Of a DNA stretch of 64,000 nt, positions 3,928 to 13,957 are shown piece after piece. Every line of letters starts with the position of its first letter. Position 1 is the first letter of the stretch. The DNA is from an uncultured Candidatus Saccharibacteria bacterium (GTDB lineage Bacteria > Patescibacteriota > Minisyncoccia > Phycocordibacterales > UBA9973). The translations under genes and the position numbers were made by a program. The notes beneath the pieces were generated by a model. The model worked only from the letters and a program-made list of their open reading frames with translations. It did not search any database and was not told where the DNA came from. The stretch is from NCBI GenBank assembly GCA_964474435.1, contig CAYYSI010000001.1, positions 62,647 to 126,646 of the forward strand. Reading direction: 5' to 3'.

Positions 3928-4518
3928 ATGAAAAACTTTACCGGTGGTGATCGACGAGAAGGAGGGTTCCGAGGAGGTGATCGTGGTGGCAAACCGGGCT
4001 TCAAGAAGTCATGGGACAACAAAGGTGGCTTTGATCGCCCACAAGTGATGCACAAGGCAACCTGCAGTGAATGCGGCAAGCAGTGCGAAGTCCCATTTCG
4101 TCCGGACGGGTCCAAACCTATCTTTTGTAACGACTGCTTTAACAAAAAGCGCGACCCATCCGACACTCGCGGTTCTCGATCTGACTTTGCTCCCAAGCGA
4201 GACTTCAACGACCGTTTCGCTCCTCGTGCCGAATCTCGTGACTTCCGCTCCGATGCTCGCCCTGCATTCAAATCCACTCCCGACAACACCGGCAAACAAC
4301 TCTCCGAGATCTCAATGAAACTCGATCGACTTATTGCTGCAATGGAAAAGATGACCGCACCAGCATCTGCACCAAAGGCGGCAAAAGAAATCCCCGACCT
4401 GCCTGCGCAGCCAGGATCTGCGCTCATCAAAGTATCAAAGCCAAAGGCTGAGAAGAAAGCTGTTAAGAAAAAGGTGGTTGCGAAAAAGAAGAAATCGCTT
4501 TTAATAAGTAGTTCATGA
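3928..4518 (+). CDS. CxxC-x17-CxxC zinc-ribbon protein with RGG-rich N-terminus and Lys-rich C-terminal tail (putative nucleic-acid binding)
   Basis: CSEC-(17 residues)-CNDC fits the CxxC-x17-CxxC zinc-ribbon pattern exactly. The N-terminus has GGDRREGGFRGGDRGG repeats, and the C-terminus is KAEKKAVKKKVVAKKKK. Confidence 0.6.
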   Translation: MKNFTGGDRREGGFRGGDRGGKPGFKKSWDNKGGFDRPQVMHKATCSECGKQCEVPFRPDGSKPIFCNDCFNKKRDPSDTRGSRSDFAPKRDFNDRFAPRAESRDFRSDARPAFKSTPDNTGKQLSEISMKLDRLIAAMEKMTAPASAPKAAKEIPDLPAQPGSALIKVSKPKAEKKAVKKKVVAKKKKSLLISSS

Positions 4519-4546
4519 ATTAAATATTAAGTGATTAACTTTTAAT

Positions 4547-4575
4547 TTGACTTAAAATAATTATAGGTATATAGT
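4547..4575 (+). promoter_or_regulatory. promoter TTGACT-17-TATATAGT immediately upstream of the Fic / Type I R-M operon (leaderless-type)
   Basis: TTGACT at 4547-4552 and TATAGT at 4570-4575; ATG at 4582, leaving only 6 nt between the -10 and the start codon. Confidence 0.5.
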
Positions 4576-4581
4576 CTTTCT

Positions 4582-5715
4582 ATGGCTAAATACAAGTCAG
4601 GTATCTATAAGCAAAAGGAAGGTTATAAAAGCTTTTATCCATCCCAGGTAAATGGGGTATTTGAATGGACAGATAAGCGTATTGACGTGCTTCTTGCTGA
4701 TGCAATGCGATATCTTGGCGAGCTTAACGCATTTTCAAAATTGGTCCCTGATGTGGACTTTTTCATACAGATGCATATTGCAAAGGAAGCTACGACTTCG
4801 AGCAAGATAGAGGGCACGCAAACAAAACTTGATGAGGCACTTTTACCAGAGCTCGAAATTGACCCAGAAAAAAGAAATGACTGGGAAGAAGTTCAAAATT
4901 ATGTAAAAGCAATCAATTACTCCATTGCAGAGCTCAAAAAGCTTCCGCTCTCGATGCGGCTTGTAAAAGATACGCACAAAGTCCTCCTTTCAAGTGTGCG
5001 AGGATATACGAAACTACCCGGAGAGGTTCGCCGAAGTCAAAACTGGATTGGGGGCGCAACGCTCAGAGATGCAGTATTTATTCCTCCGCATCATGAAGAA
5101 GTGGCTGAGCTACTGAGTGATCTTGAGAAATTTTGGCACAATAAAGAAATTGATATTCCTGACTTGATCAAAATCGCGATTTCTCATTATCAATTTGAAA
5201 CGATCCACCCATTTCTCGATGGAAATGGCCGTATTGGTAGATTATTGATCACACTTCATCTCGTAAGTTTGGGAATTCTACAGAAACCTACACTCTATAT
5301 CTCTGACTTTTTTGAAAAACATCGCCCGCAATACTACGATGGTCTTTCGCGTGTCCGAGAAACAAATGATATCGAGCATTGGCTCCGTTTCTTTTTGACC
5401 GGAGTATTGGAAACTGCAAAAAATTCACGAGAAACATTGGAGAAAATCATCGACCTGCGCAAGAAATATGAAACTACTATCGAAAAAGGTATGGGTATCA
5501 AACGTCAAAAGCTGGGCAAAGAACTCTTGCGCCATCTTTTCTCCAAACCGATAGTGACGATCAGAGAAATAGAAGCAATGCTTTCTGTAACATTTCCCAC
5601 TGCCTCGGCAATCGCAAAAGACTTTGAAAGTTTGGGATTGTTTTCTGAAAAGACTGGGCTCAAAAAGGATCGAATCTTTTATTTAACAGACTATATCAAT
5701 CTCTTCAACAAATAA
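4582..5715 (+). CDS. Fic-family protein (AMPylator-type) with intact HPFx(D/E)GNGR motif and N-terminal inhibitory (S/T)xxxE(G/N) motif
   Basis: [12 protein letters not shown] is the canonical Fic active-site motif. TSSKIEGT fits the class-II inhibitory-helix motif. The gene is tightly linked to hsdM, with a 1-nt gap. Confidence 0.85.
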
Positions 5716-5716
5716 T

Positions 5717-7480
5717 ATGGAAAATTTAACTCAAAAAACTGCAATGGTCGCAATGATCTGGAACATAGCTGACATTCTCCGTGGAGGGTGGAAGCAGCAC
5801 GAGTACCAGGATGTCATACTTCCACTTGTTGTATTGAAGCGATTGGACGCTATTCTTGCCGATACAAAGGCAAATGTGTTGGAGAAAAATAATGAATATA
5901 AAGGAAAGATTAATGATCTTGATCCCATTCTCAAGAGAACAGCTAGGGCGCCTTTCTACAATACTTCGGAGTATGACTTCACAAACCTTTTGGGTGACCC
6001 GAAACATCTCGCAAAGAACTTCAAACGGTACATCAATGGATACAGCAAGAACATACAAGACATATTCGAAAAATTTGATTTCAATAAACAGCTCGAGCGT
6101 CTCGAAGGTGGTGATCTTTTGTTCTATGTTATCCAAGAGTTAAATAAAGTAGATCTGCACTCATCAAAGATAGACAATCATGAGATGGGACGCATATTCG
6201 AAGAACTTCTCCGTAAGTTTTCTGAAATGTCCAACGAAACTGCTGGAGAACACTACACGCCTCGCGATGTGATTAGTACGATGGTGGAGATCCTCCTTGC
6301 GCCTGATGCAAAGGATCTCAAGAAACCTCATGTTATCAAGAAAATATACGACCCTGCCTGTGGTACGGGTGGTATGCTTTCTGTTGCCAAAGATTACATT
6401 CTCGAACATATAAATCCAAAAGCAGATATCTTCCTCTATGGCCAAGAACTCAACTCGGTGACGTACGCGATGGCCAAGTCCGATATGTTGATCAAGGGGG
6501 ATGACCCTGACCTGATCCGCGGAGGAGAAAAAGACCATTCCAGGGCCAGTACGCTCGCTAATGATCAGTTTTTTGGGGAAGTATTCGACTACGGACTTTC
6601 AAACCCTCCATACGGTGTGGACTGGAAAAAAGACAAAGATGTGGTCGAACGTGAAGCGTCTCGCGGATACGCCGGGCGATTTGGTGCAGGTACCCCACGT
6701 ATCTCGGATGGACAACTGCTTTTCCTTCAGCATCTCGTCTCAAAAATGAAGCCAGAAGCCGATGGCGGCTCACGTCTTGCCATTGTCCACAACGGCTCAC
6801 CATTATTTACCGGCGATGCCGGGAGTGGTGAGAGTGAAATCCGTCGCTGGATCCTCGAGAAAGATCTGCTGGAGACGATTGTGGCATTACCTGACCAGCT
6901 CTTCTACAACACAGGGATCAACACCTATTTGTGGTACATCACCAACCGAAAGTCCAAAGAACGCAAAGGCAAGGTACAACTGATCGACGCGCGTGGATTC
7001 TTCAAGAAAACTCGCAAGAGTTTGGGTAGTAAACGTCAAGAAATCGACCCAGACTCAAAGAAAAAGATACGTGATCTCTATACCAACTTCGAAGAAAATG
7101 AACATTCAAAAATCTTTAAGACGACTGACTTTGCATACCGCCAGATTCAAGTCGAGCGTCCACTGATGGTAGATGGCAAAGTCTCAAAAAATAAAAAAGG
7201 AGAAATCGAGATAGATAAATCTCTTCGCGACTATGAAAACGTGCCATGGGGAACTGATGTCAATGAATACTTTGAGAAAGAAGTAAAACCCTATGTGCCT
7301 GATGCATGGATCAATACGTCAGTTGTCGATCACAAGGATGGTAAGGTAGGAGTGGTAGGATATGAAATTCCTTTTACTCGGTACTTCTACAAATACGAAG
7401 CACCGCGAAGTCTGGAGGCTATTGAGGGTAATATTGAAAAGGTTGAAAATGAATTATTGGAGCTTTTGAAGCAGTTGTAA
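5717..7480 (+). CDS. hsdM: Type I restriction-modification system, N6-adenine DNA methyltransferase subunit
   Basis: It carries the SAM motif DPACGTGGML and the catalytic LSNPPYG (NPPY). The 587-aa size is typical of HsdM. Confidence 0.9.
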   Translation: MENLTQKTAMVAMIWNIADILRGGWKQHEYQDVILPLVVLKRLDAILADTKANVLEKNNEYKGKINDLDPILKRTARAPFYNTSEYDFTNLLGDPKHLAKNFKRYINGYSKNIQDIFEKFDFNKQLERLEGGDLLFYVIQELNKVDLHSSKIDNHEMGRIFEELLRKFSEMSNETAGEHYTPRDVISTMVEILLAPDAKDLKKPHVIKKIYDPACGTGGMLSVAKDYILEHINPKADIFLYGQELNSVTYAMAKSDMLIKGDDPDLIRGGEKDHSRASTLANDQFFGEVFDYGLSNPPYGVDWKKDKDVVEREASRGYAGRFGAGTPRISDGQLLFLQHLVSKMKPEADGGSRLAIVHNGSPLFTGDAGSGESEIRRWILEKDLLETIVALPDQLFYNTGINTYLWYITNRKSKERKGKVQLIDARGFFKKTRKSLGSKRQEIDPDSKKKIRDLYTNFEENEHSKIFKTTDFAYRQIQVERPLMVDGKVSKNKKGEIEIDKSLRDYENVPWGTDVNEYFEKEVKPYVPDAWINTSVVDHKDGKVGVVGYEIPFTRYFYKYEAPRSLEAIEGNIEKVENELLELLKQL

Positions 7481-7484
7481 TCTT

Positions 7485-8189
7485 ATGTGCTACCATCATT
7501 TGCCCATAATTCTTATAGAAGGATCAGCAAGAGAGGGCTCACAATTTTGGGGTGCATTTTGGGGTGCGTTCTTAGCATTTATCTTTGGATTGATCGCTTA
7601 CCGGATTACTAAACGATGGGAGCGTTTCCTTCTTCATAAAAATTCATTGGCTAAAATGGAACGGGTTTTAAATAATCATTTGAATGAACTTGGTTTTATG
7701 GAATTTATTGTTAAGGATGCAAGAAAAAATTTAACAGAACGTAAGCTTACACCTGATAGAATATTGAAATTTGATATTCCGGAAGGGGTTGATATGGAAT
7801 TTGGTAGTCTGAGATTAGTAAATGATTTCATGGACTACAGAGCTACTGTTATTCGTTTTAACTATAACTCAAGATCACTAAATCATGTACTAGATCGATT
7901 TGATGAAATGTTACTAACAAACCCTACTCTTATTGCAGGTAATGCATCGTATGCAATAGAGATGCTTCAAAAATTTGAAGAAGACATACCAAAAGTTATT
8001 GAAAGCTTTAAGGAATTTCTAATGACTATTAGAATCTATATCCATAAAACCAGACAGGTAGAAAGCTTTTTCTATGGTGTTTCAAAAAATATATGGGAAT
8101 TTCAAATTACTGAAGAAGAATTAAAAAAGGAAAAGGAAAAATTTGAAACAGAAGTAAAAATGTTGCGCGAGAAAAGAGAGAAAAAATAA
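7485..8189 (+). CDS. hypothetical membrane-anchored protein embedded between hsdM and hsdS (orfX)
   Basis: ATG lies 5 nt after the hsdM stop, and the gene ends 2 nt before the hsdS start. One N-terminal TM helix (GAFWGAFLAFIFGLIAY) is followed by a predicted cytoplasmic region with a KE-rich coiled-coil tail. No motif was recognised. Confidence 0.5.
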   Translation: MCYHHLPIILIEGSAREGSQFWGAFWGAFLAFIFGLIAYRITKRWERFLLHKNSLAKMERVLNNHLNELGFMEFIVKDARKNLTERKLTPDRILKFDIPEGVDMEFGSLRLVNDFMDYRATVIRFNYNSRSLNHVLDRFDEMLLTNPTLIAGNASYAIEMLQKFEEDIPKVIESFKEFLMTIRIYIHKTRQVESFFYGVSKNIWEFQITEEELKKEKEKFETEVKMLREKREKK

Positions 8190-8190
8190 T

Positions 8191-9489
8191 ATGCAAACAC
8201 TCAGACTAACAAAAAAATACAAAACCTATCCTGAATATAAAGATTCTGGAGTTGAGTGGCTAGGAAAGATTCCTAAAGAGTGGGAATCTCAAAAAATTGT
8301 ATCTGTGTTTGATTTTCCAAATCAGAAAGTTACAGAAACAACTCATGAGCCACTATCTGTCACATATGACGGCATAAAAAGACAGATTGAAAACGCTGCA
8401 AAAGTTGCAGAAGGTAGTCTTAGAAAACATGTAGAAATAGGAGATATAGTCATCAACGGACGCTCTGATAGAAAAGGCGCAGTAGGTATGTCTGAATATG
8501 ATGGGGGCGTGTCTCTTGTATACAATGTACTAAGGAAACGAAACAAAGAATTTGATTCAAAGTATTTCCATTACCTTTTCAGAAGTAAACTATTCTCAGA
8601 GGAGTTTTATCGCTGGGGGCGAGGTATCGTTGATGATCTTTGGACTACTCGCGAAAGCGAAATGAAGAGAATTTTTATTACTGTCCCGGAAATGACAGAT
8701 CAAACAAAAATCGCAAAATATCTCGACGAAAAAACATCACTTATTGACCAAACCATCTCAAAAAAACAAAAACTGATCGAGCTGCTGCGCGAGAAGCGGA
8801 TGGCGGTAATTAATCAGGCAGTGACAGAAGGTTTAAATCCGGATACTGAGATGATGGAGAGTGGTGTAGAGTGGATTGAGAAGATTCCTAAGGTGTGGAA
8901 GGTTCTACCTTTGAAGTATAATATTGAAATTCAAGAAGGGCCTGGAATCATGGCTGAGGATTTTAAAGAAATTGGAGTTCCTTTATTGAGAATTAAAAAT
9001 CTTAAAAACGGTTTTGTTGACCTGGAAGGTTCTAATTTCCTTGATCCTAAAAAAGTTCAAAGTAAATGGAATCATTTTAAATTACAACAAGGCGATCTGC
9101 TGATCAGCGGAAGTGCGTCTTCCGGCATAGTATCTGAAGTTACAGAAGAAGCTGTTGGTGCGATTGCATATACTGGACTAATTAGAATTTCTTCAAAAAC
9201 TCTACACAAACAATTTTTAAAAAATCTTCTAGATTCAAAATACTTTAACGAGCAAGTTGAGATACAAAAAGCGGGAACTGCAATGCAGCATTATGGACCT
9301 ACTCACCTAAAGAAAGTTGTTATCACTATTCCCTCATATGATGAACAAAAGAAGATTGCTTATTATCTTGATAAAAAGGTATCAGTTTTTAATGAAACCA
9401 TAGAGGTAATTGAGCAATCTGTTGAGTTATTACAAGAATTTAAATCGTCGCTCATTTCGAATGTGGTGACGGGAAAGGTTAAGGCATGA
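8191..9489 (+). CDS. hsdS: Type I restriction-modification system, specificity subunit (two target-recognition domains)
   Basis: The conserved repeat helices are duplicated (LDEKTSLIDQTISKKQKLIELLREKRMAV... and LDKKVSVFNETIEVIEQSVELLQEFKSSLI...), consistent with a tandem TRD architecture of 432 aa. Confidence 0.85.
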   Translation: MQTLRLTKKYKTYPEYKDSGVEWLGKIPKEWESQKIVSVFDFPNQKVTETTHEPLSVTYDGIKRQIENAAKVAEGSLRKHVEIGDIVINGRSDRKGAVGMSEYDGGVSLVYNVLRKRNKEFDSKYFHYLFRSKLFSEEFYRWGRGIVDDLWTTRESEMKRIFITVPEMTDQTKIAKYLDEKTSLIDQTISKKQKLIELLREKRMAVINQAVTEGLNPDTEMMESGVEWIEKIPKVWKVLPLKYNIEIQEGPGIMAEDFKEIGVPLLRIKNLKNGFVDLEGSNFLDPKKVQSKWNHFKLQQGDLLISGSASSGIVSEVTEEAVGAIAYTGLIRISSKTLHKQFLKNLLDSKYFNEQVEIQKAGTAMQHYGPTHLKKVVITIPSYDEQKKIAYYLDKKVSVFNETIEVIEQSVELLQEFKSSLISNVVTGKVKA

Positions 9490-10052
9490 TTAAAGAAGAA
9501 TTAATAGAATATAAACTTGATAATCTTCCTTATAGCTTTAGAAAATGGAGATATCTTGCAACATATAGAAATCAATGGGATTTTTTACCAAAAACTCTTA
9601 AAGATAGAATCGCTGAGCAGTTAATGACTGCAGATTATATAGTTACGTTAGATGAATGGTTAAAACCTGCTATTACAATAAAAGAAAGGCAAAGAGTTTT
9701 ATTGTTACAGATACTTGCATCTATTTATGAAGGCGTTTTAACTTATTTGGTTTCGGAAAAAATTAAAATTGATATTTCGGATAATAAGGCATTGAAAACA
9801 ATTTATGATAAATCAACTTTTTATGGAGAAAAAAGAACATTTAGGCCAACTTTACAATTAGCTTTTGATATGGGATTGGTTAGTGAATCTTGGAATTCAA
9901 AACTAGATAAGGTAGTTGAAATAAGAAATTGGGTTCATTTGTCAAATTCAGAAAAACCAGATATTTTACATTGGATTATGAATCGTACTTGTGAAGAACA
10001 CAGAAAAGAATTAGATTTATTTCGAGAATATATAAAAATAAAATTCGATTAA
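9486..10052 (+). CDS. hypothetical protein embedded between hsdS and hsdR (orfY); possible HEPN/Abi-like accessory
   Basis: The start overlaps the hsdS stop as ATGA. It is 188 aa and very AT-rich, with no ATPase motif. It contains R-x3-H (EIRNWVHLS), which only loosely resembles a HEPN Rx4-6H motif. It occupies the slot where PrrC-like anticodon nucleases sit in other Type I loci. Confidence 0.45.
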   Translation: MIKEELIEYKLDNLPYSFRKWRYLATYRNQWDFLPKTLKDRIAEQLMTADYIVTLDEWLKPAITIKERQRVLLLQILASIYEGVLTYLVSEKIKIDISDNKALKTIYDKSTFYGEKRTFRPTLQLAFDMGLVSESWNSKLDKVVEIRNWVHLSNSEKPDILHWIMNRTCEEHRKELDLFREYIKIKFD

Positions 10053-10053
10053 T

Positions 10054-13017
10054 ATGACCACAAAAACTAACACAAAAGAATCAGGCTTTGAGGAATTCAT
10101 CGAGCAAGAGCTCGTGAGTCTCCATGGCTACCAGTCACGCCCGGCAAGTGTGTATGACAAGAAACTCTGTATGGATACTGAGCTGGTGTTGTCATTTGTG
10201 CGAAGTACTCAGCCAGATGTGTGGGCACAGCTCGAGGAGCAGCTCGGTGAAGAAACAGAGTCGAAGTTTTTGGCACGACTTGATGAAGAAATCACTTCAC
10301 GAGGGTTGCTGTCAGTGCTACGCGAAGGAATCACTGATCGTGGGGTGCGATTTCGGCTCGCCTTTTGGAAACCACAGAATGACATGAACCCAGAAACTAT
10401 TGCGGATTATGCGGGCAATATATTGAGTGTTATACGTCAGGTCAAATATAGTGAAAAGAATGAGAACTCCATTGATATGGTGCTCTTTGTGAATGGGCTG
10501 CCAATATTTACTGTCGAACTCAAAAATCAGTTTACAGGGCAAAACGTCATTAATGCCATCCAGCAGTACAAAACTGATCGCGATCAGAAGGAGAAGTTAT
10601 TGTCGTTCAAACGCTGCTTGACTCACTTTGCTGCAGATACAGACCAGGCGTATATGACGACCAGGTTGTCGGGGCTAACGACCTATTTCTTGCCATTCAA
10701 TAAGGGTGACAAAGGTTCTGCAGGTAATCCAGTAGCACCAAAAGGAAAGTATAAAACGTACTATCTCTGGGAAGAAGTATGGGCAAAGGATAGTATGTTT
10801 GATTTGCTTGGGAATTTCATACAGGAAGTTGTAGAAGAAAAAGAAGACAAAAACGGGCGACGTCGTCGTGATGAGAAGCTGATCTTCCCTCGGTATCATC
10901 AGCTCGATACGGTGCGACGAATTGTGCAGGACGCACGAGAATATGGATCGGGTAAAAATTATTTGATTCAGCATAGTGCAGGGTCTGGTAAAAGTAACAC
11001 GATCGCATGGGTAGCGCATCGGCTCGCAGAGCTGCACACTACACAAAACCACAATGTGTTTGATGGTGTCATCGTGATTACTGATCGACGCGTATTGGAT
11101 CGCCAATTGTCAGAGACGGTGAAGAGCTTCAGTCAGACGACGGGATTAGTAAAACATGTGGAATCATCCGCTGATTTGCGGGAAGCGCTGGAAGGTGGAG
11201 TAAAGATTATTACGAGTACGCTGCAAAAATTCCCAGTGATCGTGGAAACGATTGAAAAAACGGCAGGCAAGCGATTTGCAATTATCGTAGACGAAGCACA
11301 TTCATCACAGTCGGGTGAAAGTGCGGCTGATTTGCGACAGGCACTGACGTTGGATGAGGCAACACAACAAGAAGAAAAAGAAGAGAAGCTGTTCAAGACA
11401 GTAGAAGATCAGCTCATAGAACGCATGAAGGCGCGAAAGGTTTCGTCTCCAAACTTGAGCTTCTTCGCATTCACTGCAACACCAAAACAAAAGACACTTG
11501 AATTATTTGGAACAGAGGATCTGGTATCAGGGAAATTTAATCCGTTCTCACTATACTCAATGAAGCAGGCAATTGAAGAGAAATTCATTTTGGATGTATT
11601 GAAAAACTACACGATGTACGAGACGTATTTTGGCCTATTGAAAAAGGTAGAAGATGATCCAGAATTTGATAAGAAAAAGGCACAACGACTGATGGTGGGC
11701 TATGTAGAGCGACATGAGCATGTGATCGATAAAAAGGTCGCGATAATGGTCGAGCATTTTGAAGAAAAGATTGCACGGTTGATTGATGGAAAGGCGAAAG
11801 CTATAGTGGTCACCAAATCACGCCTCCATGCAGTACGGTACAAAATCGCATTTGACAAATATCTCAAAGAAAAGGGGTATAAGCACAAATCATTAGTGGC
11901 TTTTTCTGGCACCGTTAAAGATGGTGATACAGAAGTTACTGAGGGACAGATGAATAAAGTCCCAGAAAGTCAGACCGCAGAAGAGTTCAAGAAAGATGAC
12001 TATAAATTTCTCATTGTGGCTGAAAAGTTTCAAACAGGCTTTGATCAGCCGTTGTTGTCAGTCATGTATGTTGATAAAAAATTGGGAGGAGTAAATGCGG
12101 TACAGACCCTTTCACGATTGAATCGCACGACATATGACAAGGATGAAACATTTGTGCTCGATTTCGTCAACGAGACTGACGATATTAAGGAGGCATTTCA
12201 GCCCTACTATACAACGACGATTTTGTCAGAAGCGACCAACCCAAATATTTTGCATGATCTGGAGCGTGATGTGCGAAACTTTAAATTCTTTAGCGATTTT
12301 GAAATCAATGGATTTGTAGAGGAGTATTTTGGAGGTGCGACGCCTGATAAACTCAACCATATCATTGATGGAGTTGTTGCCCGTATTCAAAATGAAAATC
12401 TCACTCAAGAAGAGATAGAAGGATTTAAATCAACTGGAAGTGATTATCTGCGAAAATATTCATTTATATCTCAAATTGTAACATTCGAAGACCCACAGCT
12501 TGAAAAGTTATATATTTTCTTGAAATTCTTGATAAAGAAGTTACCCAAATACCCTGATCCGTTGCCGTACGAAGTATTGGAAGCAGTTGATATGGAAAGT
12601 TATAAAATTGAGAAAAAAGTTGAGACAAACATTGCACTTGAAAACAAAGATGGTGAAATCGATCCAATGAGTGGAAGTGGTGATCGCAAGGGTGGTAGTG
12701 AGGAAGAGCTCGATATGCTTTCAAAAATTATTAAGGAAATAAATGAGCGCTATGGCACCAATTTCTCCGATACAGATCGAGTTATCTTGAATGATTTGAG
12801 TTTGCGACTTCTCAAAAATGAAATCTTACAGGGTTCAGTCAAAAACAATAGTAAAGATGCTGCAAAATTGAAGTTTGATCAAATGTTCCAAGACGAGCTC
12901 GTCGGCGTACTTGATAATCATTTCAGTCTTTATCAGAAATTGGATCAGAGTCCAGAACTCAAGAAGTTTGTGCAAGAAAAAGTGTTTGAGTACGTTATAA
13001 GGAAAATGGATAAATAA
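10054..13017 (+). CDS. hsdR: Type I restriction enzyme, restriction (helicase-nuclease) subunit
   Basis: An N-terminal PD-(D/E)xK nuclease motif (DMVLFVNGLPIFTVELK) is followed by Walker A QHSAGSGKSNT and a DEAH box (IIVDEAHSS). The protein is 987 aa. Confidence 0.9.
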   Translation: MTTKTNTKESGFEEFIEQELVSLHGYQSRPASVYDKKLCMDTELVLSFVRSTQPDVWAQLEEQLGEETESKFLARLDEEITSRGLLSVLREGITDRGVRFRLAFWKPQNDMNPETIADYAGNILSVIRQVKYSEKNENSIDMVLFVNGLPIFTVELKNQFTGQNVINAIQQYKTDRDQKEKLLSFKRCLTHFAADTDQAYMTTRLSGLTTYFLPFNKGDKGSAGNPVAPKGKYKTYYLWEEVWAKDSMFDLLGNFIQEVVEEKEDKNGRRRRDEKLIFPRYHQLDTVRRIVQDAREYGSGKNYLIQHSAGSGKSNTIAWVAHRLAELHTTQNHNVFDGVIVITDRRVLDRQLSETVKSFSQTTGLVKHVESSADLREALEGGVKIITSTLQKFPVIVETIEKTAGKRFAIIVDEAHSSQSGESAADLRQALTLDEATQQEEKEEKLFKTVEDQLIERMKARKVSSPNLSFFAFTATPKQKTLELFGTEDLVSGKFNPFSLYSMKQAIEEKFILDVLKNYTMYETYFGLLKKVEDDPEFDKKKAQRLMVGYVERHEHVIDKKVAIMVEHFEEKIARLIDGKAKAIVVTKSRLHAVRYKIAFDKYLKEKGYKHKSLVAFSGTVKDGDTEVTEGQMNKVPESQTAEEFKKDDYKFLIVAEKFQTGFDQPLLSVMYVDKKLGGVNAVQTLSRLNRTTYDKDETFVLDFVNETDDIKEAFQPYYTTTILSEATNPNILHDLERDVRNFKFFSDFEINGFVEEYFGGATPDKLNHIIDGVVARIQNENLTQEEIEGFKSTGSDYLRKYSFISQIVTFEDPQLEKLYIFLKFLIKKLPKYPDPLPYEVLEAVDMESYKIEKKVETNIALENKDGEIDPMSGSGDRKGGSEEELDMLSKIIKEINERYGTNFSDTDRVILNDLSLRLLKNEILQGSVKNNSKDAAKLKFDQMFQDELVGVLDNHFSLYQKLDQSPELKKFVQEKVFEYVIRKMDK

Positions 13018-13469
13018 TGAAAAAAGAAAGAACGATTATAACCGAAGATTTTGTACAACGAAGCGTTATTAGGTATCTCGAAAAGAACGGCTGGAGCAAA
13101 TCATTGAAAAGTGCTGAACTGTGGGAACAGGGAGTAGATATTAAGGTTTGTAATAACAAGTTCTCACGATATTGGCTTATTGAAGCAAAAGCCGATCCTT
13201 CAATTACAGTAAAGAGTCCTACAGGCAGTATGAGTAGTAGTTTCAATTCTGCTTTGGGTCAAATAATAACGAGGATGCACACAAAAGGTGCTAGAGGATA
13301 TAAATATCGTTATAAATATGGCATAGCTTTCCCTGTGTCATTTAAGAAAATGGTTTTGAGAAAAATTCCGTATGACGTAATGGATAAACTGAATCTTTAT
13401 TTGTTTTTCGTTAATGAAATTGGGAATATTGAGGTGTATGATTGGCGTATTGTAAGAAAATTAAAATAA
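13017..13469 (+). CDS. stand-alone PD-(D/E)xK nuclease-fold protein (HsdR-N / Mrr-like), translationally coupled to hsdR (orfZ)
   Basis: The start overlaps the hsdR stop (TAATG). The motif GVDIKV...WLIEAKAD fits a D...(D/E)xK restriction-endonuclease-like core. The protein is 150 aa. Confidence 0.5.
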   Translation: MKKERTIITEDFVQRSVIRYLEKNGWSKSLKSAELWEQGVDIKVCNNKFSRYWLIEAKADPSITVKSPTGSMSSSFNSALGQIITRMHTKGARGYKYRYKYGIAFPVSFKKMVLRKIPYDVMDKLNLYLFFVNEIGNIEVYDWRIVRKLK

Positions 13470-13957
13470 TTATGCCCCTCCATCCCGAAACAACTATTGG
13501 ACACATTCATCTCACTGTCAGCGACCTTGAGCGAGCACTTGGATTTTATCGTGACTTGCTGGGGTTTGAAGTCACGGCGAAGTATGGAGATCATGCAGTA
13601 TTTCTTTCGGCGGGAGGGTACCATCACCACATAGGGCTCAATACATGGGCAGGGAAAGGGGTGACACCGCCACCAGAGGGGCACACGGGGCTGTATCATG
13701 CAGCAATATTGTTTCCGAGCCGCAAGGCATTGGCAACAGTGCTCAAGCATCTCATGGACAACGGATACCCAATCGATGGGGCGTCTGATCATGGAGTATC
13801 AGAGGCGATATATTTGCATGATCCAGACCGAAATGGTATCGAGCTCTACTGTGACCGCCCAAAGGAAACGTGGAAGGTAAATAATGACGGACTTGTTGAG
13901 ATGGATACCAAGCCGCTCGATATCGATGACTTGCTCGCCCAGGCAGATATAGACTGA
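13442..13957 (+). CDS. VOC-family protein (glyoxalase / bleomycin-resistance / extradiol-dioxygenase fold)
   Basis: IGHIHLTVSDLERALGFYRDLLGFEV...GYHHHIGLNTW is a typical VOC/glyoxalase-I-like signature. Confidence 0.75.
   Translation: MAYCKKIKIIMPLHPETTIGHIHLTVSDLERALGFYRDLLGFEVTAKYGDHAVFLSAGGYHHHIGLNTWAGKGVTPPPEGHTGLYHAAILFPSRKALATVLKHLMDNGYPIDGASDHGVSEAIYLHDPDRNGIELYCDRPKETWKVNNDGLVEMDTKPLDIDDLLAQADID

Follow-up and report, generated by a model that had tools for sequence, protein, structure and literature searches.

In the EcoprrI (prr) type Ic restriction-modification (R-M) locus, the gene for PrrC lies between those for the specificity and restriction subunits, in the order hsdS-prrC-hsdR. 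PrrC, a protein of ~400 aa, carries an N-terminal ABC-type NTPase that regulates its C-terminal nuclease, a HEPN domain with a canonical motif, and this RNase is latent in the R-M enzyme and freed when a phage disables restriction. HEPN domains (Pfam clan CL0291) form a superfamily defined by an Rx4-6H motif, i.e., 4 to 6 residues between the arginine and the histidine, which are located at the end of helix 3, with a variable insert between helices 2 and 3; helix 2 contains a further conserved acidic residue, usually as part of Ex3[K/R], that lies close to the motif in space (Anantharaman et al. 2013). Not all HEPN domains are catalytic: some act as binding modules, and such non-catalytic domains typically lack the motif.

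HEPN RNases in R-M operons have been a known theme of back-up defence since 2013: no fewer than 16 clades of HEPN proteins are associated with R-M, specifically with nuclease/helicase subunits, and neighbourhoods of R-M, HEPN, and DOC/Fic genes have been described (Anantharaman et al. 2013). The R-M-embedded solo HEPN families comprise Abi2/AbiD/AbiF, AbiU2, AbiJ solos, Ymh, ApeA, DUF4145, and EC042_2821/DUF3644 (Anantharaman et al. 2013), while the embedded HEPN protein HEC-08, which matches the structure 5YEP, loses its defence activity when the motif histidine is mutated (Payne et al. 2024). An RNase-based back-up defence has been proposed or shown for such solo proteins (Anantharaman et al. 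2013; Payne et al. 2024), which are small or single-domain and encoded in R-M, BREX, or Hma operons near nuclease/helicase subunits. HepT/DUF86 toxins (Shewanella SO_3166, PDB 5YEP; 7BXO; 7AE8) are likewise small, single-domain proteins; their RNxxxHxY motif (GLRNIAVHDY) has 4 residues between R and H, and its tyrosine is AMPylated by an adjacent MNT antitoxin.

The window, i.e., the whole stretch of 64,000 nucleotides analysed here, contains an R-M island of a Patescibacteria genome, in which orfY, a gene for a small protein that most likely belongs to an unnamed, previously unclassified, HEPN-like family, occupies the same slot as PrrC. The island is larger than hsdMSR and consists of 7 genes (4582-13469) with intergenic gaps of ≤4 nt, in the order Fic, hsdM, a 234-aa ORF, hsdS, orfY, hsdR, and a 150-aa ORF, so that orfY is the fifth gene:

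4547..4575, plus strand: best promoter candidate, TTGACT-17-TATAGT, a 10/12 match to a sigma-70-like consensus just upstream of Fic
4582..5715, plus strand: Fic/DOC-family gene of the SoFic type, first in the operon (Pfam Fic_N and Fic; PADLOC SoFic, 4.4e-116)
5717..7480, plus strand: hsdM, methyltransferase subunit, 587 aa (HsdM_N and N6_Mtase domains)
7485..8189, plus strand: 234-aa ORF between hsdM and hsdS, its translation having a stretch of hydrophobic residues at the N-terminus
8191..9489, plus strand: hsdS, specificity subunit, 432 aa (Methylase_S, 5e-13)
9486..9489, plus strand: ATGA overlap of the orfY start and the hsdS stop, read from the sequence
9486..10052, plus strand: orfY CDS with ATG start, 188 aa, from the ORF list and translation
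9729..9731, plus strand: codon of E82 (in SIYEGV), acidic and invariant, within predicted helix 2
9918..9947, plus strand: motif codons E145-N154 (EIRNWVHLSN) with the invariant R147-[N/D]148-x-x-H151, the putative catalytic motif
10054..13017, plus strand: hsdR, helicase-nuclease restriction subunit, 987 aa (HSDR_N, SWI2_SNF2, ResIII, and T1R_D3-like domains)
13017..13469, plus strand: 150-aa ORF with a D..ExK (PD-(D/E)xK-like) motif, which overlaps the hsdR stop and closes the operon

The sigma-70-like match at 4547..4575 is likely the operon promoter. The Fic protein contains both the catalytic motif HPFLDGNGR and an inhibitory motif of its own, SSKIEG. No family match was obtained for the 234-aa ORF in Pfam, PADLOC, NCBIfam, or PHROG-type scans, and the 150-aa ORF, which shares 36% identity with the tail gene at a related locus (L002), had no Pfam or PDB match.

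A reading of the sequence alone had placed orfY in the hsdS-hsdR slot, the position of PrrC in prr-type loci, and the Pfam domains of the flanking genes confirm this type I arrangement. The gene junctions also agree with that reading: at the hsdS/orfY junction (...AAG GCA TGA), the orfY ATG (9486-9488) overlaps the hsdS TGA (9487-9489), while the orfY TAA (10050-10052) is followed by one T and the hsdR ATG at 10054. The ATGA overlap suggests translational coupling of hsdS and orfY, and the same 4-nt overlap was found in 3 related loci (L008, L009, and L011); orfY is probably co-transcribed with hsdS and hsdR as well as translationally coupled. With homologues of similar length at 22-85% identity, and an ORF of 188 codons being improbable by chance in DNA of 27% G+C, orfY is a genuine gene and not a chance ORF. 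Its G+C content is the lowest within the operon, as is that of its counterparts in most related operons. A search for repeats around orfY, as marks of cassette insertion or of an RNA antitoxin, revealed only short AT-rich chance matches, and Rfam identified only tRNAs, located elsewhere in the window.

Despite the shared slot, OrfY and PrrC have no detectable sequence similarity. The translation of 188 aa lacks a Walker A/P-loop, as the sequence-only reading had stated, and no NTPase domain was matched, whereas PrrC/RloC proteins have an N-terminal ABC/Rad50-like one fused to the HEPN nuclease; moreover, the canonical motif of PrrC contrasts with an Rx3H in OrfY. The segment EIRNWVHLS, which had been pointed out in the same reading for its R-x3-H, corresponds to residues 145-153 (nt 9918-9944), with R147 encoded at 9924-9926 and H151 at 9936-9938. 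A survey of homologues, which that reading had proposed as a check, revealed strict conservation of both residues: each of the 45 family sequences covering this position has R[ND]xxH, always with exactly 3 residues between R and H, and none of the 45 has Rx4-6H here. In an alignment of 41 sequences reaching down to 22% identity, Y51, E82, R147, and H151 do not vary at all, and position 148 is almost as constant as N/D, with N as the usual residue and D in one subclade.

The family is rare, comprising ~35 clusters in 1.84 billion representatives. It extends to a homologue on a Vibrio plasmid (hhalign probability 96.5, E 8e-10), which retains SIYEAV and ARNAIH. No relative of orfY was found on the scanned contigs of GTDB species representatives or on viral contigs, and tblastn against a phage collection gave no match. 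Two candidates were not accepted as members: a 397-aa repeat protein (P0043, E 6e-4), which is a false positive, and a 181-aa ORF at locus L017, which bears a canonical Rx5H motif.

Sequence and profile searches did not connect the family to described HEPN proteins at significant levels. Neither OrfY nor its 30-41 relatives had a significant match in Pfam, NCBIfam, PADLOC, or PHROG, including the Pfam and PADLOC models of the solo HEPN families, all of which have Rx4-6H in contrast to the Rx3H of OrfY. Weak matches in the direction of HEPN came from single members each (DUF4145, 0.013; HEPN_RiboL-PSP, 0.077; Csx1/Csm6, 0.02), along with a weak profile match to PDB HepN (0.9); for the R-M-linked family DUF4145 (PF13643), this was 1 of 30 members at E 0.013, short of the cut-off, and the protein encoded in the window had no match. 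Two profile searches of a 5.8-billion-protein set, one of them at E≤10, did not reach any Pfam-annotated protein, and no profile search bridged to an annotated HEPN protein. A comparison with a HEPN family profile, the kind of check that the sequence-only reading had called for, did not reach significance: hhalign against a DUF86/HepT alignment gave a probability of 1.4%, P 0.038, and a score of 18.06, which 2 of 200 column-shuffled controls reached. The local alignment is nevertheless in register, since R147/N148 pair with the R/N of DUF86 and, after just one gap of one residue, H151 pairs with the DUF86 histidine. A classical HEPN protein encoded on a Meiothermus plasmid yielded no match with hhalign. 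None of the searches placed OrfY in an unrelated non-nuclease family, an outcome that the same reading had named as speaking against its HEPN idea. Matches to eIF3c (PDB search, E 0.003, from a local W..L..IK.W.L pattern), to ferritin (PDB search, weak and inconsistent), and to the SecA scaffold motif (W..HL....LR.GIHL; for one member also the Pfam model SecA_SW, 0.005) were judged to be due to chance, and Cas6b_C (0.078) and SdhE (0.052) were considered noise.

An AlphaFold model built from 30 sequences (pLDDT 90.1, pTM 0.86) is an all-helical bundle with predicted helices at residues 24-30, 36-59 (H1), 63-97 (H2), 134-150 (H3), and 158-165 plus 169-187 (H4). Between H2 and H3, 2 poorly conserved insert helices (101-109 and 119-128) are predicted at lower confidence (101-128). 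The N-terminal segment of ~35 aa, which is extra in comparison to HepT, is conserved. Foldseek searches of the PDB with 2 independent AlphaFold models both placed HepT/HEPN toxins at the top of the list (7bxo, 6m6u, 5yep, 8xeh, and 7ae8, as well as HI0074 and YutE; target TM 0.54-0.65), with HepT/DUF86 being the best structural match of both models. The best of these HEPN-toxin matches have probabilities of 0.96-0.99 (0.9-0.99 over the top matches of both searches), yet E values of ~0.25 or worse and an rmsd of 5-7 Å, and no fold match in the PDB reached E≤1e-3 with either model. Non-HEPN helical bundles did not exceed a probability of 0.35, and neither did any match in a viral structure library.

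In the model, R147 and N148 form the last turn of helix 134-150, while H151 is the first residue of the following loop. This predicted anatomy agrees with HEPN domains as published: helix 3 ends in R/H, helix 2 has an invariant glutamate, and a variable insert lies between these helices. The helical bundle expected of a HEPN domain is present in the predicted structure. We consider a HEPN-like fold of OrfY probable. The details deviate: the residue 4 positions past E82 is not K/R, so that there is no Ex3[K/R] around E82, and the spacing of 3 is outside the 4-6 residues that define HEPN. None of the papers searched describes an Rx3H HEPN protein. The HEPN proposal of the sequence-only reading is partly supported, by the fold matches and by the positions of motif, glutamate, and insert, but not by any significant profile link, and the fixed Rx3H runs counter to it. 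OrfY differs from HepT in that its RNxxH is followed by L-S, without a tyrosine at H+2, and there is no neighbouring MNT gene; in fact, no nucleotidyltransferase gene was adjacent to orfY homologues at any of the examined loci.

The genomic context resembles that of the solo HEPN families and HEC-08, to which OrfY is alike in being small and encoded near a helicase-nuclease subunit. Seven distinct homologues are located in or adjoining a type I operon, 5 of them immediately upstream of hsdR and 4 of these within full hsdM-hsdS-orfY-hsdR operons; the contigs of L003 and L006 show hsdS upstream, and the hsdS-hsdR slot is shared by the homologues of L002, L003, L008, L009, L011, and L109. Two further homologues are found upstream of a type III Res gene. 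The orfY gene is therefore tied to the gene of the helicase-nuclease subunit across type I and type III operons. At L015, the gap between mod and res contains a homologue together with 2 nucleases, one Shedu-type and the other AHJR-like. Other homologues have no R-M genes nearby, namely those in a prophage-like region (L007), on the Vibrio plasmid (L099), and after a Translin-family gene (L107/L108). The slot is occupied in a related HsdR lineage by cassettes of DUF4433 plus a macro domain or of AAA plus DUF4276, and closely related HsdR lineages occur without any gene in the slot.

Taken together, the best explanation in our view, held with about as much confidence as doubt, is that OrfY represents a new HEPN-like putative RNase effector of an R-M operon that serves as a second-line abortive defence. 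In this scheme, for which we infer dimerisation, RNase activity, toxicity, and R-M gating, OrfY would work in the manner of HEPN toxins: in a homodimer, R147, N148, H151, and E82 would together make up a composite endoribonuclease site that needs no metal, and the RNA cleaved there would come from the cell or the phage (tRNA, rRNA, or mRNA). By shutting down translation, this cleavage would provide an abortive defence where DNA restriction has not sufficed. With Fic heading the operon, the targets of the island would be DNA (R-M), RNA (OrfY), and proteins (Fic). The favoured sub-mechanism takes PrrC as its model: the RNase would be kept latent by the restriction complex or the R subunit and freed when a phage disables restriction. 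This logic is favoured because orfY accompanies the gene of the helicase-nuclease subunit in operons of both type I and type III; however, physical gating by the R-M complex is not demanded by the data, as homologues lie outside R-M loci and unrelated cassettes occupy the slot. Accepting OrfY as an RNase defence effector is close to an even call, while its gating by the R subunit is a tentative suggestion. A role of OrfY as a Class I Fic antitoxin ((S/T)xxxE(G/N)) was also considered and rejected: the only candidate, SIYEG, has the wrong spacing, the position 4 before E82 is A/G/C/V in the family, and the Fic protein of the island has an inhibitory motif of its own. Furthermore, such an antitoxin must co-occur with Fic, yet orfY homologues are also found in operons without Fic.

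The loci without R-M neighbours and the other contents of the slot, including the L015 gap with its 2 nucleases, would be readily understood if orfY were a HEPN-like gene for abortive infection or a toxin that acts autonomously, senses infection alone or via a partner, and does not depend on the R-M complex, with the slot serving as a hot-spot in which defence cassettes become embedded and are co-expressed. The low G+C content of orfY points in the same direction, and the embedded systems TgvAB and HEC-08 act by themselves. However, the association is old and stable, as orfY has diverged in step with HsdR and HsdM, its identity tracking theirs across loci from 85% down to 27%, and orfY precedes the R/Res gene directly every time, with overlapping or abutting codons. 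Furthermore, neither an antitoxin nor a sensor domain is evident, and a HEPN protein of 188 aa that lacks a sensor domain and a conserved antitoxin requires some restraint. We therefore regard full autonomy as rather unlikely. The missing antitoxin could also be explained if OrfY were no toxin but a non-catalytic accessory subunit, HEPN-like or otherwise helical, that serves in assembly, in regulation, or in the binding of nucleic acids or nucleotides and modulates HsdR/Res (e.g., restriction alleviation or translocation control). Its tight coupling to hsdS/hsdR, its place next to an SF2 helicase-nuclease subunit in 2 R-M types, the existence of non-catalytic HEPN binding modules, and an Rx3H spacing outside the range of known active HEPN RNases are all in line with such a role. 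Nonetheless, the constellation of R, N/D, H, and E is strictly invariant over 22-85% identity, which is the pattern of a catalytic site, and it is the motif that non-catalytic HEPN domains typically lose; moreover, closely related HsdR lineages function with an empty slot, and some homologues have no R-M system to modulate. This renders an accessory subunit improbable.

A relationship to HEPN proteins might itself be illusory, with OrfY being a generic up-and-down bundle that carries a chance motif, e.g., an immunity protein or another enzyme. The poor E values and rmsd of the fold matches, together with the non-significance of every sequence or profile link to HEPN, would allow for this, and weak local matches of other kinds (SecA scaffold motif, eIF3c, ferritin) do occur. 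It is, however, HEPN toxins that top the searches with both independent models, far above the probabilities of other bundles, and the positions of motif, acidic residue, and variable insert coincide with the HEPN description in a context that is classic for HEPN. We thus consider it hardly probable that OrfY is unrelated to HEPN. Within the favoured reading of OrfY as a restrained RNase, the most specific version is a minimal guard RNase, sensor-less and antitoxin-less, with an Rx3H site and gated by the SF2 helicase-nuclease subunit of type I/III systems; in this complete form, we regard it as unlikely. If it were true, the HEPN active site would tolerate Rx3H, restriction subunits could serve as an antitoxin, and a PrrC-type second line of defence could exist without an ABC ATPase.

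The orfY family probably adds a new member to the HEPN-in-R-M theme. It is detected by none of Pfam, NCBIfam, PADLOC, and PHROGs, and since it escapes these domain and defence databases, annotation pipelines miss orfY. Furthermore, the island of R-M, HEPN-like, and Fic genes would extend the three-target arrangement to a new lineage. Should OrfY prove active, the sequence definition by which HEPN nucleases are searched for would have to become wider to include its invariant Rx3H. With a link to the helicase-nuclease subunit that holds across 2 R-M types, the orfY locus of this small Patescibacteria (CPR) genome offers a very small test case for the restraint of a toxin by an R-M system.

The gene orfY, which lies between hsdS and hsdR, is a genuine gene, and its position and length of 188 aa are as first read from the sequence. 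The junctions described in the sequence-only reading were borne out as well: hsdS ends in AAG GCA TGA, so that its stop and the orfY ATG (9486-9488) share a 4-nt ATGA, and a single T separates the orfY TAA (10050-10052) from the hsdR ATG. The translation contains EIRNWVHLS at residues 145-153 and no P-loop, in agreement with the lack of an ATPase motif noted before. By their domain content, the neighbors are true subunits of a type I restriction-modification (R-M) system, which belong to an operon larger than originally delineated:

4582-5715, + strand: Fic/SoFic, first gene of the operon, Fic/DOC protein of the SoFic defense type (PADLOC SoFic, 4e-116)
5717-7480: hsdM, with HsdM_N and N6_Mtase domains
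7485-8189, + strand: 234-aa ORF without family match, between hsdM and hsdS
8191-9489: hsdS, with a Methylase_S domain
9486-10052, + strand: orfY, ATG start, 188 aa
10054-13017: hsdR, with HSDR_N, SWI2_SNF2, ResIII and T1R_D3-like domains
13017-13469, + strand: 150-aa ORF, overlapping the hsdR stop by one base, end of the operon

These genes overlap or lie at most 4 nt apart, and the best promoter-like site (4547-4575) is located immediately 5' of Fic. The Fic protein carries the catalytic motif HPFLDGNGR and its own inhibitory motif, SSKIEG; for this reason, and because the SIYEG of orfY does not fit the spacing of (S/T)xxxE(G/N) and orfY also occurs in operons without Fic, a role of orfY as a Fic antitoxin was rejected. 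The 234-aa ORF has a hydrophobic stretch at its N-terminus, FWGAFWGAFLAFIFGLIAY, and matched nothing in any family library searched. Since a DUF2130 protein takes its place in the related operons L002 and L003, the hsdM-hsdS slot represents a second variable accessory slot. The 150-aa tail ORF shows a PD-(D/E)xK nuclease-like pattern (GVDIKV...WLIEAK, D...ExK) and 36% identity to the gene behind hsdR in L002, with no Pfam match and no PDB sequence match. The whole R-M island (4500-13500) has a G+C content of 27-44%, below the 45-53% of the host genes on either side; the minimum is found in orfY, with 27% (hsdR, 42%), and its homologs are likewise the lowest-G+C gene of most related operons. 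No repeats or RNA elements were found flanking orfY. Immediately 5' of the island, a 196-aa protein of host-like G+C (3928-4518, + strand) combines a Gly/Arg-rich N-terminus with a segment resembling a zinc ribbon (CxxC...CxxC) and a tail rich in Lys. The host itself is a Patescibacteria (CPR) bacterium of the Paceibacteria/Nomurabacteria type, as MAGs with that label encode proteins 83-89% identical to a 907-aa protein of housekeeping size from the window.

A word-indexed search revealed 8 relatives of orfY, and when 1.84 billion cluster representatives were searched exhaustively with HMMER, 36 were found at E ≤ 1e-3, although one of these, P0043, was rejected as a repeat-protein false positive. 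Profile searching brought in P0044-P0047, a divergent subclade with RDEVH, and the most remote member, linked by hhalign (probability 96.5, E 8e-10), is a protein from a Vibrio alginolyticus plasmid. The family is therefore real and rare; it is also unnamed, as orfY and its relatives were matched by no model of Pfam, NCBIfam, PADLOC or PHROG. The Vibrio protein (WP_213986513.1; L099 5707-6375, plasmid NZ_CP082309.1), annotated as "hypothetical protein", retains SIYEAV and ARNAIH; no other member was found in an organism that is both cultured and annotated, and with IYE and RNAIH kept in a cultured host it is a handy candidate for experiments. Two features stand out at another locus (L017, 639-1184 and 4509-6140): a family gene that a DDE_3 transposase divides into P0049 and P0048, and, near this split gene and beside an IS-interrupted ResIII gene, a separate 181-aa ORF with a canonical HEPN-type RNMSTGH (Rx5H) and no Pfam family match.

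In an alignment of 41 family sequences, reaching down to 22% identity, Y51, E82, R147 and H151 are invariant, one subclade has D instead of N at position 148, and D50, Y27, F33, L59 and F179 are nearly invariant. By regular expression, all 45 sequences that extend over the homologous site have R-[N/D]-x-x-H there, and none has 4-6 spacer residues. The R and H residues in which a loose resemblance to the HEPN RNase motif had been seen are thus clearly conserved, with their spacing fixed at three, so that the first refuting outcome named in the sequence-only reading, a lack of such conservation among homologs, did not occur.

The AlphaFold2 model of orfY reached a pLDDT of 90.1 and a pTM of 0.86 with a 30-sequence alignment (79.9 and 0.78 with 8 sequences). 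It is all-helical, with a short N-terminal segment followed by helices 36-59, 63-97, 134-150, 158-165 and 169-187; 2 further helices (101-109 and 119-128) are less confident and poorly conserved. HEPN proteins are defined as having a polar residue (N, D or H) after the R and a second conserved acidic residue in helix 2. In the model, R147 and N148 end helix 134-150 and H151 starts the loop, E82 lies within the second long helix, and the least conserved segment is the insert 101-128, which is longer still in the Vibrio homolog. The predicted structure therefore fits most of the HEPN anatomy; E82 corresponds in position to the helix-2 acidic residue, although no K/R follows it four residues on, and the one clear departure is the R-H spacer of three residues instead of four to six. 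No mention of an Rx3H HEPN was found in the papers searched.

At the sequence level, the link to HEPN families is weak. Single family members gave sub-threshold matches to DUF4145 (0.013), RiboL-PSP-HEPN (0.077), Csx1/Csm6 (0.02) and the PDB HepN toxin (0.9), accompanied by other, unrelated noise. An hhalign comparison of the family with DUF86/HepT, represented by a small alignment built from annotated plasmid genes, was not significant (probability 1.4%, P 0.038), and with one classical HEPN protein there was no match. In the best local alignment with DUF86, which also pairs the flanking helices, exactly one gap is needed to bring R147/N148 onto R/N and H151 onto the His (eiRN-xIHlsk against GfRNiavHdY); the score of this alignment, 18.06, was reached by 2 of 200 column-shuffled DUF86 profiles (mean 11.7, sd 2.3). 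Matches to the SecA scaffold, eIF3c, ferritin and Cas6b_C were rejected as local and non-significant. With neither a Pfam model match nor a significant DUF86 comparison, no significant profile link to established HEPN families was found. The HEPN assignment proposed in the sequence-only reading is therefore supported in part, by the predicted structure, the anatomy of the motif and the genomic context. Since neither an Rx4-6H spacer nor significant similarity of profiles was found when looked for, we do not class orfY among the canonical members, but consider it most likely that it works like a HEPN nuclease.

Close relatives (70-85% identity) share the order Fic, hsdM, variable gene (DUF2130 or unknown), hsdS, orfY, hsdR and small tail gene, sometimes with a further variable gene between hsdS and orfY. 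The distant relatives P0047 and P0044 (27-29% identity) occur as hsdM-hsdS-orfY-hsdR with the same hsdS-stop overlap and without Fic. Pairwise identities for orfY, HsdR and HsdM, respectively, between the window and related loci (L002: 85%, 72%, 77%; L003: 73%, 81%, 72%; L008: 27%, 49%, 57%; L011: 29%, 46%, 57%) and between L008 and L011 (59%, 54%, 63%) show that the three co-diverge; orfY is therefore long established in this R-M lineage and was not inserted recently. Furthermore, a 42%-identical homolog is part of a type III R-M operon (L015 325-6986, metagenome contig Ga0265592_1000967), in which three genes are inserted between mod (N6_N4_Mtase and TypeIII_RM_meth) and res: a Shedu-type SduA_C nuclease, the orfY homolog and a 99-aa AHJR-like nuclease. 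Another relative, P0042, lies immediately 5' of a gene for a ResIII helicase of 892 aa that carries an endonuclease domain at its C-terminus.

Among HsdR relatives of about 44% identity, the hsdS-hsdR slot is empty in Bacillus and Hymenobacter and holds unrelated cassettes in Meiothermus (DUF4433 and macro, DarTG-like; AAA and DUF4276; L111 3333-6941, Meiothermus taiwanensis plasmid NZ_CP021131.1), pointing to a general docking site for defense cassettes. On a Synechococcus sp. PCC 7502 plasmid (NC_019691.1, L105 1-847), a canonical MNT-DUF86 (HepT) pair directly 3' of hsdS provides a comparison case, a textbook HEPN gene beside a type I R-M system.

Read most economically, orfY would be a metal-independent endoribonuclease of HEPN-like type. 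If it resembles other HEPN enzymes in its chemistry, it would work as a dimer, with the His as the general base, stabilization of the transition state by Arg and Asn, and help from the helix-2 Glu; it would be deployed behind restriction as a second line of defense. Anantharaman et al. linked at least 16 HEPN clades to R-M systems, through nuclease, helicase or ATPase subunits and not methylases, and described neighborhoods with an additional DOC/Fic toxin as three-level defense acting on DNA, RNA and protein; the operon in the window, with Fic, R-M and orfY, reproduces this pattern described in 2013. Moreover, Payne et al. reported that the embedded HEPN protein HEC-08 gives defense that is lost upon mutation of the motif His, and the HEC-08 model matches the HepT-type PDB entry 5YEP, as the orfY models do.

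Since no sensor domain and no conserved antitoxin were found for orfY, and the family is linked to R/Res genes in two R-M types, we tentatively favor gating by the restriction subunit, similar to that of the anticodon nuclease PrrC, along the lines of the R-M-controlled toxin suggested before. Nearly as likely, if still doubtful, orfY could be an autonomous embedded toxin, because independently acting embedded systems such as TgvAB provide a precedent and homologs occur outside R-M systems: P0045, in a prophage-like region, has a LexA-like repressor and a methyltransferase as neighbors, and the Vibrio copy sits among plasmid cargo genes. P0040 lies 4 nt 3' of a 230-aa Translin-family gene (PF01997, 34.6 bits; L107 220-1459, L108 328-1567) on very short contigs with no visible R-M context; as Translin proteins bind RNA or ssDNA, this neighbor is a possible RNA-related partner. 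Overall, the analysis establishes the gene, its conservation, its predicted fold and its surroundings, whereas dimerization, RNase activity, toxicity and gating are inferred.

While HEPN-type effectors embedded in R-M operons are a well-known theme, orfY is new as a database-invisible variant, and its compressed invariant motif, its association with restriction subunits of both type I and type III systems and its minimal architecture make it well suited to experiments.
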